A stretch of DNA of 64,000 bases from a bacterium (GCA_030647115.1 JAUSJZ010000010.1:4540-68539), one strand, 5' to 3'. Shown: positions 4,766 through 6,538, counted from the stretch's first letter. The notes: a model not told the origin generated them from the letters alone. Translations and numbers: made by a program.

Positions 4766-5119
4766 ACCACTTTTGGTGACTGATTACGTGGCTGCGCAAG
4801 CAGAGGAAAGTCCGGGCTTCAGTGTCATCGTTGTTGCTAACGGCAACCCACCGCAAGGTGCGAGCTAGTGCCACAGAAACGATACCTCCGGCGAAGCTCC
4901 AGAACGAAAGTATCAGGAGCGGAGCCGGAAAGGGTGAAATAGTGCGGTAAGAGCGCACTGGTTTGCTAGGTGACTAGCGAATCGAGGTAAACCTAACGGG
5001 AAGCAAGGTGGGTTGGACTGTAGACACATCAAAAGGTTGACACACCGTGTCTGTAGAACCCACCGCTTAGATAGATCACGTAATAAACAAAACCCGGCTT
5101 ATCGGTCACCAGGGGTGGT
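4766..5119 (+). ncRNA. rnpB: RNase P RNA (type A-like, no P18)
   Basis: GAGGAAAGTCCGGGC, AGTGCCACAGAAA, GGTGAAA, GGTAAACC and ACAAAACCCGGCTTA conserved regions; P1 (ggtgactgat/atcggtcacc) and P2 (attacgtg/cacgtaat) pair. Confidence 0.97.
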
Positions 5120-5134
5120 TTTTTAGTTAAACTA

Positions 5135-6034
5135 TTAGAGCAATCCGCCAGTCATAATTCGGTATTCTCTCTTGGAGTCCCAAATACTGGTTAGTGCTTT
5201 GAAATTCTTATCTGGTTCCAGCATTAATGTCGCCAACTGATCAATCTCTTGTAGTACTTTTTCTTTCAGGTTAGTAAAGTTGCTATAGCTGACAATCTCT
5301 GGAACATGTAGGTAAATGATTTCGTTGTTCATCAAGCAGTGAAAGTCATAAAACAACTCCCAAGCAATCGCCATTAATCCCTCAAAACCACCGGCATTGT
5401 AGAAATGTTTTTCGTCAATCTTGCCCGCGCGCACTTGCAACCAAGCAGCGGCAGAAAAGTCGAAAGTACCTTGTGGCAAATCATAGAAGTTTAGTTTTGT
5501 GTAATTGTGTAGACTACCGTCGACATCAATTGTGACCCAGCGTGATTGCCCCTCATCCCAGTACTGATCTATCCAATGATCATCACTTTTTCCTACCGGA
5601 AGACCCTCCACCATAAAATACGGAGCAAAGCCAGACCTAACTCTGGTGGGGATGCCTTTTGATTTTAAAATTGCTGCCACTAAAAGAGAGTCATGCCGGC
5701 AAGTCACAACTAGTTTATCTTCCGGATTGCGATCGAGAGTAAGCCCCCTGGCATCCCTTCTGAAAAGCTCTGCCATCATTGCTGAAACGGTTGGAAAAAC
5801 ATCATCTTCTGGTTGTCTGTACCAAGGAACCCTGTTCATGTCACCGTATTTCAAATCAGAATTAGTACCCGTATTGCCGGCTTTAAGAGTCGTGCGGTGG
5901 ATGATCTGTTTTCGCACCAAAAGTCCAATTTCCTTAATGTCGTTTGGTAATTCTTCTCTAAGGTACTTTTCATACAAACCAGGATTGGTATAGAGGCTAA
6001 AACACTTATAGTGGTCTATGATTACCTGTTGCAT
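5135..6034 (-). CDS. transglutaminase-like (Cys-His-Asp) domain protein
   Basis: TCRHDSLL..GIPTRVRSGFAPYF..DHWIDQYW..RWVTID, the TGc fold pattern. Confidence 0.85.
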   Translation of the reverse strand: MQQVIIDHYKCFSLYTNPGLYEKYLREELPNDIKEIGLLVRKQIIHRTTLKAGNTGTNSDLKYGDMNRVPWYRQPEDDVFPTVSAMMAELFRRDARGLTLDRNPEDKLVVTCRHDSLLVAAILKSKGIPTRVRSGFAPYFMVEGLPVGKSDDHWIDQYWDEGQSRWVTIDVDGSLHNYTKLNFYDLPQGTFDFSAAAWLQVRAGKIDEKHFYNAGGFEGLMAIAWELFYDFHCLMNNEIIYLHVPEIVSYSNFTNLKEKVLQEIDQLATLMLEPDKNFKALTSIWDSKREYRIMTGGLL

Positions 6035-6102
6035 GATTGAAATTTATATTATTTTTAGTCAAACTAACTCTACTTCCACATCTACTTCTTGCTCTCAAAC
6101 TA

Positions 6103-6247
6103 TGGTCGGGGACCTGGATTGAGGTTGTCAAGTCAGTCCCTCGCACCTTTTAAGCTTAATACTCGGGACTGATTTTGACAATCCTCGGTTGAATGGTGCC
6201 GTTTCAAGCTAATCGTACCATTCAACACGAACCAGTGGTTCGAACCC
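6103..6247 (-). repeat. tRNA-Gln 3'-end-derived structured element, copy 1
   Basis: tggtcggggacctggatt + two long hairpins (6121-6186, 6188-6226) + cgaaccagtggttcgaaccc (+ strand). Confidence 0.85.
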
Positions 6248-6260
6248 TTATCACTAGGTC

Positions 6261-6299
6261 AAAAGAAAAAGGTCTACCAGAAGGTAAACCTTTTTCTTT
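6261..6299 (-). terminator. terminator-like hairpin between the two elements
   Basis: aaagaaaaagg..ccag..cctttttcttt inverted repeat with A and T tracts. Confidence 0.65.
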
Positions 6300-6406
6300 G
6301 GCTCGGGGACCTGGATGGTGACCGTCAAGACAACCGTCATTGACTGTCACAGCCACCGTGGTCGTTGACACTATACCACGGTGGCCCGAACCAGTGGTTC
6401 GAATCC
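6299..6406 (-). repeat. tRNA-Gln 3'-end-derived structured element, copy 2
   Basis: tggctcggggacctggat + two hairpins (6318-6350, 6352-6385) + cgaaccagtggttcgaatcc (+ strand). Confidence 0.85.
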
Positions 6407-6414
6407 TTTACCTC

Positions 6415-6465
6415 AAAACAATACGCCATAGCTTCAGAAAGAAATTATCTGAAGCGACGGCGTAT
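6415..6465 (-). terminator. terminator-like hairpin after tRNA-Gln
   Basis: atacgcc..gcttcaga / tctgaagc..ggcgtat inverted repeat followed (minus strand) by tgtttt. Confidence 0.6.
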
Positions 6466-6538
6466 GGCTCGGGGACCTGGATTCGAACCAGGATTCACGG
6501 CTTCAAAGGCCGCTGTCCTACCATTAGACGATCTCCGA
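6465..6538 (-). tRNA. tRNA-Gln(TTG), CCA encoded
   Basis: TCGGAGA..CTAATGGTAGG..GCGGC-CTTTGAA-GCCGT..CCTGG-TTCGAAT-CCAGG-TCCCCGA-G-CCA cloverleaf. Confidence 0.97.

Follow-up and report, generated by a model that had tools for sequence, protein, structure and literature searches.

The sublocation classes of tRNA integration sites include a T-loop type, and casposons are accompanied by a long duplication of a tRNA 3' end. At tyrT/rtT of E. coli, 178-bp tandem repeats stand behind the tRNA, each carrying a terminator and finishing with about 19 nt copied from the 3' end of that tRNA; to our knowledge, these repeats have neither an inverted T-arm copy nor a core shared across different tRNAs. 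The attP(+) site of CTX phage is a folded single strand that serves as an XerCD substrate, and the target of IS608 is TTAC. By the Islander definition, islands are bounded by a tDNA and a displaced tDNA fragment and encode a non-Xer tyrosine integrase (PMC4383910). Strand exchange at integron attC sites takes place on a folded single strand with extrahelical bases and RYYYAAC/GTTRRRY core boxes (PMC5027507), while the enzymes of IS200/IS605 elements and REP sequences cut beside a bulged hairpin at a position selected by a guide (PMC8266576, PMC6006769). The guides of IS200/IS605 are 4 nt long.

The locus described here lies in a 64,000-nt stretch of bacterial DNA (GCA_030647115.1 JAUSJZ010000010.1:4540-68539, hereafter the window), from an ultra-small groundwater bacterium whose genome assembly of 617 kb is 86% complete. 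Gene finding places a tRNA-Gln(TTG) on the minus strand at window positions 6465-6538, and this is the target gene of two gene-less units of 166 and 196-197 bp located 3' of it (spacings of 166 and 197 start-to-start, and 196 end-to-end). In the direction of the tRNA, each unit consists of a hairpin (T), a 14-15 nt spacer, an inverted copy of the T arm, the 5' half of the T arm in direct orientation (CTGGTTCG), two further hairpins (A and B), and a tail that copies the tRNA 3' end, all on the minus strand. In unit 1, hairpin T1 (6422-6464) starts from the base after CCA and is followed by a spacer beginning TTG (6407-6421), likely the decayed continuation, of equal length, of an inverted copy of the acceptor 3' end. 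Next come a 12-nt exact reverse complement of the tRNA that is the putative guide (6395-6406), the direct half-arm CTGGTTCG with which it pairs (6387-6394), hairpin A (6351-6386), hairpin B (6318-6350), which is a short variant of a conserved GTCAA..TTGAC hairpin with one extrahelical base, and tail 1 (6299-6316), which begins 7 nt after TTGAC and matches tRNA nt 59-76 at 18/18 positions. In unit 2, hairpin T2 (6262-6298), with A-rich and T-rich arms, abuts the CCA of tail 1 and leads through a spacer beginning TG (6248-6261), again likely a decayed inverted copy, into an inverted T-arm copy with one G.T wobble against the tail (6236-6247), the same direct half-arm CTGGTTCG (6228-6235), hairpin A (6188-6226), hairpin B with the family core GTCAA-AA-TCAG...CTGA-C-TTGAC (6121-6186), and tail 2 (6103-6120), which comprises nt 58-76 minus G73 and is likely the displaced original end of the gene. 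An A5.C68 mismatch in the acceptor stem of the tRNA-Gln itself may have been left by replacement of the 3' end. Two occurrences each of an 18-mer, a 15-mer and the 17-mer TTCGAACCACTGGTTCG were counted in the 617-kb genome, where 2e-5, 1e-3, and 7e-5 would be expected by chance.

All features of the two modules that an earlier, sequence-only reading had described are present at the positions it gave, with some corrections of detail: nt 58 in the tRNA-proximal copy is C rather than A, and the CGTT said to open the hairpin A loop is there when read on the plus strand but is not conserved in the family alignment. The T hairpins called terminator-like do abut CCA; a consensus terminator scan made 0 calls for them, however, and the likeness is one of appearance only.

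Compared with tRNA/tmRNA islands, the modules likewise show a restored tRNA with a displaced 3' fragment in direct orientation, tandem arrays, and a T-loop-type junction, but they are gene-less, lack an integrase, measure 160-230 bp, form one family at 12 isotypes, and carry a target-matched inverted copy and a two-hairpin core at the junction. As for attC and the CTX attP, the strand is predicted to fold so that it would rebuild a duplex site with extrahelical bases; it keeps this fold while its sequence varies, and it occurs in arrays. Unlike attC, the modules have a TTGAC-N7-8-(A)NNCC junction without RYYYAAC/GTTRRRY, have a predicted multi-branched fold, and target the tRNA T arm rather than attI or dif; unlike integron cassettes, the units are empty of ORFs, and an IntI gene was not found. 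With IS200/IS605 derivatives and REP sequences they have in common two imperfect subterminal hairpins, a bulge that is conserved, a complementary stretch on the 5' side of the hairpins by which the cut site could be chosen, and a location of cores at gene 3' ends, with 4/6 solo cores starting near TTAC. The guide-like stretch is nevertheless 9-17 nt and target-specific instead of a tetranucleotide, and the tRNA-linked modules duplicate 9-19 nt of the target, whereas IS200/IS605 elements duplicate none. They also differ from REP sequences in lacking GTAG/GTGG 5' of the hairpin foot in the alignment, and from both groups in numbering fewer than 10 copies per genome and in that a Y1 transposase is missing from 7/7 carriers. 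Like the tyrT/rtT repeats, the modules stand in tandem behind a tRNA and end in a copy of its 3' end, but here no Rfam match is found; like casposons, they involve a long tRNA 3'-end duplication, but without terminal inverted repeats or a casposase and at a size 50-100 times smaller. The modules can be likened to a cross between the remnant of a tRNA-integrating island and a single-stranded DNA substrate of the attC or IS605 type, yet in each comparison a defining feature is lacking. A full-text search of articles outside subscription journals returned no paper describing this architecture.

We consider it probable, at roughly 0.6, that these modules are non-autonomous, gene-less fold-back mobile elements acting as single-stranded DNA, whose inverted copy pairs with the target, and that an HUH or tyrosine enzyme supplied in trans would cut them where hairpin B has its foot.

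The modules at tRNA-Gln are not an assembly artefact, since one contig from run X1, possibly the source sample, covers positions 5000-6521 with 0 differences and the modules were found again in three runs of a second study, on groundwater samples. The same locus varies among strains, as judged from contigs of three samples of that one other study (depth about 3-14, one contig per arrangement). In X4, T2 comes straight after the tRNA and leads into core 1, so that the first 166-bp unit is missing precisely at the 18-nt repeat. In X2, the order of the cores is swapped, with a core-2 variant ahead of the tail, T2, and core 1. X3 has core 1 and its tail, and the next 475 nt, ahead of the RNase P gene, are of other sequence; unit 2 and the neighbouring gene at 5135-6034 (minus strand) are both missing. 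This accessory gene, which has 43% GC and a weak transglutaminase-like match below the Pfam cut-off, is thus replaced along with unit 2 in one other strain; its one homolog among 60 class genomes lies away from any tRNA, and it is a possible candidate for cargo. Within the cores, strains differ mostly in loops and upper stems, and exchanges between them involve both the tail and the shared 17-nt motif, so that the rearrangements could represent ordinary recombination between short repeats. Among the contigs, neither a circle nor a junction of one was seen. A class A RNase P RNA gene at window positions 4773-5116 is convergent with the transglutaminase-like gene.

The suggestion that the two units belong to a family is borne out by relatives at other tRNAs, each with its own T-arm sequence. 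ARAGORN reports 31 tRNAs in this genome (G000), of which tRNA-Arg(TCG) and one tRNA-Met have the unit with their own tails, and the family here comprises units at tRNA-Gln (two), Arg, Met, and Asn (two). Models built from the modules of this genome identify carriers in 7/13 genomes of the order, and we measured 21 tRNA-linked modules at 12 tRNA isotypes, bearing in mind that modules of one order are kin and that counts therefore overstate independence. On a metagenome contig (L030), two modules stand in tandem behind tRNA-Met, and tRNA-Glu is accompanied by a truncated one. The hairpin-B pattern gave 10 matches in genome contigs, 4 of them true tRNA-linked modules and 6 without a tRNA, and 15 in metagenomes, where 2 are tRNA-linked, a few are solo hairpins, and the remainder are apparently chance; named records sharing the pattern carry the labels Berkelbacteria or Saccharibacteria, which places this bacterium in the Patescibacteria. 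The exact core was absent from the genomes searched outside the order: 0/398 by pattern, 0/150 with model R2, and 0/151 genomes of another class with model R3 (with 23 candidates scored per genome). Model R3 recovered the same 7 carriers, and its weak match among 138 other class genomes was rejected on proving to be coding sequence. The pattern GGRTTCGAACC..GGTTCG, which is too specific, had 0 matches in 60 relatives. Searches of viral contigs returned 0, 89, 0, 36, 0, and 3 pattern matches, with no module among those scored (80 of the 89 were scored by model); the phages and plasmids searched gave no match, and no autonomous copy was present among the loci read.

The frame in which the cores sit is wider than the core itself. 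In five regions of G005, 7/11 tRNAs show the frame, mostly with other cores, and in four other genomes of the phylum we found 7 tRNA- or tmRNA-end loci at which hairpin T is followed by an inverted copy, 5/7 with a direct tail within 300 nt; matches to the frame pattern away from tRNAs numbered 3 in other phylum genomes. Conversely, hairpin A+B cores are also found outside the tRNA frame, in either orientation (L029, L035, L080, L081, L082), at the ends of rpoD, a nusA-like gene, and another gene and in rRNA operon spacers, with a start near TTAC in 4/6 of these solo cores. In G005, a hairpin-B element (L073) lies antisense to tRNA-Val at its 5' end, where it uses the 7-nt acceptor-stem match that the 3' module uses as well. 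The antisense copy and the solo cores in either orientation indicate that module orientation is independent of transcription. A second core family uses the same frame in this genome at tRNA-Val GAC (C10), Leu TAG (C32), and His (C42), and more weakly at C3, with its junction at nt 56, c-GNA-g triloops, and an inverted copy matched to each tRNA. In G133, a frame with a different core is found 3' of the tmRNA gene (L260).

Hairpin T adjoins CCA, and the next bases are TG in 16/21 modules, TTG in 3, and TAG in 2. Between the inverted copy and hairpin A stands GGTTCG. In a tRNA-Ser module of G005, the 17 nt after hairpin T are an exact reverse complement of the tRNA end, from which the spacer elsewhere is likely the decayed first stretch of one long inverted copy, and the whole unit a fold-back of the tRNA 3' end; the decayed spacers themselves differ only slightly in similarity to the cognate tRNA end (4.0 of 11 positions) and to others (2.9). 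In its T-arm part, the inverted copy varies with the target. T-loop nt 59 is complemented in 13/13 true, readable inverted copies (7 A, 4 G, 2 T), from a set of 23 modules of which 7 unreadable ones and 3 mis-picked regex matches that are not inverted copies were set aside. Inverted copies in the Asn, Gln(CTG), and Ser modules match the gene exactly over 12-17 nt, exceeding the internal pairing of the module. The mean longest exact match is 8.9 with the cognate tRNA and 6.4 with non-cognate ones; the cognate ties or does better in 10/21 modules and beats all non-cognate tRNAs in only 4/21, as expected from the resemblance of T arms to one another. At L046, L008, L044, L055, and L051, the direct or inverted copy has TGA in place of the T-loop TTC, a change that would put tandem G.A mismatches into the fold-back helix, and such tandem pairs are known for their stability.

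The split of the T loop, reported at one position for both copies, is right for these two and for 11/21 modules in all, while the other 10/21 split later, after the T stem, with tails of 9-14 nt; several of the latter retain a direct T-arm copy 5' of hairpin A. In modules of the T-loop class, nt 59 is located 7-8 nt past the TTGAC of hairpin B in 11/11 cases.

That the frame begins exactly at CCA, with an inverted copy opening with TG in 16/21, could also fit an RNA-mediated retro-element, in which the inverted copy would be a primer-binding site for the cognate tRNA, or its cDNA, and a reverse transcriptase in trans, such as a DGR reverse transcriptase, would copy the module back. Tails of 18-19 nt are comparable in length to a retroviral PBS, and this genome has a reverse transcriptase with an Avd-like neighbour. 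We nonetheless regard this reading as improbable: the would-be priming part next to CCA is the part that has decayed, G002, G003, and G007 have no reverse transcriptase match, the changes in inverted copies and tails, judged by eye, are not limited to A or T positions as in DGR mutagenesis, and the loops of hairpin B are of DNA type.

Hairpins A and B are supported by covariation, as would be expected of structured elements. In the stem alignment, 82% of cells are paired and 13/21 pairs have changed on both sides, a figure inflated by related sequences; 0/500 shuffles scored as high, and slid controls reached 25-39%. Hairpin B, whose fold is predicted, has a conserved AA/C bulge and strand-biased triloops, with GNA motifs 19 times on the tRNA strand and 4 times on the opposite strand, while G.T wobbles (35 vs 40) show no strand bias. 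Among 29 hairpin-B apical loops, we count 12 GNA/ANA triloops, 1 GNRA, and 0 UUCG, although the window's own two copies have no clear triloop. By comparison, 34 loops predicted in the first 60 nt past CCA include 4 UUCG and 4 GNRA. In DNA, ANA triloops behave like GNA. GNA mini-hairpins are far more stable in DNA form than in RNA form (PMC13037366; PMC3201870), and the triloop sequences in hairpin B thus favour a DNA rather than an RNA signature. Unit 2, if excised, is predicted to form a four-way junction; in the predicted excised circle, GTTCG and the ANNCC that opens the tail are both partners of the inverted copy, which in the predicted integrated state would instead be able to pair over 12 bp with the intact tRNA gene.

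These results also weaken the alternative, raised by the sequence-only reading, that the modules are functional CCA-ended, tRNA-like RNAs, which would be co-transcribed with the tRNA and released by tRNA-processing enzymes. The cores do fold stably on the tRNA strand as RNA (z -3.9 and -6.1 against dinucleotide shuffles) as well as DNA (z -4.6 and -5.4), an RNase P RNA gene lies 1 kb off, and CCA is kept in 11/21 downstream tails. It is lost in the other 10/21, however, and tail conservation runs the wrong way for such RNAs, with nt 59-67 on the junction side kept at 97/99 positions and nt 68-76 decayed to 67/99 (at an offset chosen to fit the proximal half). The acceptor 5' strand is not conserved, every unit sits behind a hairpin with RNA-type loops, antisense copies exist, and the modules have no match in Rfam 15 at gathering score, where only tRNA, tmRNA, RNase P, and group I intron were found. 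Functional RNAs of this kind are therefore quite improbable; the triloops, the distal decay and CCA loss in the tails, the antisense copy, and the solo cores in either orientation together favour a DNA substrate. A group I or trans-splicing ribozyme was rejected, the core being too small, with no G before the tail and no Rfam match.

No mobilising enzyme is encoded near the modules, as had been noted from the sequence, and no ORF with a family match lies inside the units. The further expectation that an HUH, tyrosine, or serine enzyme would co-occur with them found no support in the family searches. Y1_Tnp (PF01797) is absent from all 7 module-bearing genomes of the order, including this one (86-100% complete), and present in 1/13 order genomes, a non-carrier in which it has a stop, and in 1/5 further genomes. 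PF00589 is represented by an Xer-like protein in 12/13 order genomes, with one match in 5/7 carriers and two in the remaining carriers; none among the 13 is a carrier-specific integrase, and the only such protein of this genome is Xer-like and located away from the modules. PF00239 matches in this genome, in 3/5 carriers, and in 1/5 further genomes, PF00078 (DGR-type in this genome) in 2/5 carriers, PF02371 in 1/5 genomes, and PF04986 in 0/5, its controls being equally silent. PF01541 yields a UvrC-sized protein in all genomes and an extra small stand-alone protein in 5/5 carriers, without palindromic flanks or a tRNA. In G002, the genome richest in modules (97% complete; 9 model matches on 4 contigs), the searches yielded a single Xer-like PF00589 protein and gave no match for a serine recombinase, reverse transcriptase, Y1, or IS110. 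The DGR-type reverse transcriptase of this genome (L003, G000 C23:20607-22203) lies beside ftsZ and is read as such from its Avd-like neighbour.

Large serine recombinases that target tRNAs are present in G000, G003, and G005, and other-core modules lie at the far end of two islands of this kind, as they might if modules were plain scars left at attachment sites, or what deletions have left of islands that target tRNAs, in particular islands with large serine recombinases, which these bacteria commonly harbour. But each of the two serine-recombinase islands, in G005, is closed by a tail repeat of its own ahead of hairpin T, which places the modules as stacked behind the islands and not as part of them. 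The family-A core moreover has no match in the recombinase loci, nothing being shared beyond 13-mers, and G002 and G007 carry modules without a serine recombinase match. The plain form of this reading is largely refuted, and we hold scars to be very improbable. One of the recombinases in this genome (L002, G000 C47:4167-5771) has a reading frame that ends within a tRNA-Ala on the opposite strand, and a short remnant of the end of its gene is found on C20, 3' of tRNA-Ser(CGA), with an inverted and a direct tail fragment.

That no mobiliser co-occurs would be expected if no enzyme is involved at all. Template-switching at hairpin T and the T arm would then yield direct-inverted-direct triplications, independent palindromic cores resembling REP or MITE sequences would land inside them, and transformation and recombination would shuffle the arrays. 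The hairpin A+B cores outside the tRNA frame, the strain exchanges at both shared repeats, and the unrelated cores in the same frame in other genomes all fit this scheme. It leaves unexplained why the TTGAC-to-junction distance is constant in all 11 modules, why each unit has a hairpin T of its own rather than a duplicate of the same one, and why hairpin B is bulged and conserved in sequence across genera, and it is in our view unlikely. The last of these features makes it likely that hairpin B has a protein partner.

If the modules are single-stranded fold-back elements, as we favour, the following course can be envisaged. On single-stranded DNA of the lagging strand or from transformation, the T arm of the target would invade the inverted copy. 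A single strand exchange at G57/A58-N59 would join the 5' part of the tRNA to the tail of the element, restoring the gene, and the same exchange would link hairpin B to the old tail; replication would fix the product, and repeats would stack. The trans-acting enzyme would bind hairpin B, whose sequence is fixed and which has the AA/C bulge. An HUH/Y1-type enzyme is a tentative candidate for this role, a tyrosine recombinase of the attC/CTX type a rather less likely one, and an enzyme of another class less likely still. Rewriting of the guide for a new tRNA might proceed by fold-back synthesis primed at hairpin T, which is a guess. A broader proposal, which we put forward as possible but doubtful, is that these modules belong to a new class of DNA-guided elements, single-stranded cruciform circles with their own 10-30-nt guide, rewritten from each target by fold-back synthesis, that would insert into any tRNA T loop through an undescribed enzyme acting in trans, which many core families across Patescibacteria would have in common.

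Should the inverted copy be a working guide, the modules would represent natural, reprogrammable DNA-guided insertion with a guide of 10-17 nt, would point to an enzyme still to be found, and would account for variable arrays at tRNA ends in the gene-poor Patescibacteria, which are mostly without integrases and CRISPR. The conserved hairpin B and the fixed junction offer a ready substrate for pull-down and cleavage. If no enzyme exists, the modules still make up a repeat family that no catalogue lists and that misleads the prediction of islands in these genomes.

Several further arrangements were seen at tRNA genes of this genome. No empty site for the tRNA-Arg module appeared in contigs mapped to the tRNA-Arg/His cluster; one X2 contig has about 200 nt, not 126, between tRNA-His and tRNA-Arg. 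On contig C33 (L276:194-421), a group I intron splits the anticodon loop of a tRNA-Asn gene that ARAGORN missed, and the two family-A modules at tRNA-Asn lie directly 3' of it, with a third, degenerate module about 0.9 kb beyond the pair, past a 206-aa gene. At C1:5213-6705, AT-rich cargo of 1.4 kb and a tail repeat of 14 nt, without an integrase, lie 3' of a tRNA-Arg(GCG). Finally, a third repeat type occupies about ten tRNA 3' ends (C3, C7, C9, C17, C20, C30, C32, C42), where a perfect palindrome of about 26 nt is found at CCA and shared short palindromes follow about 70-100 nt past it.
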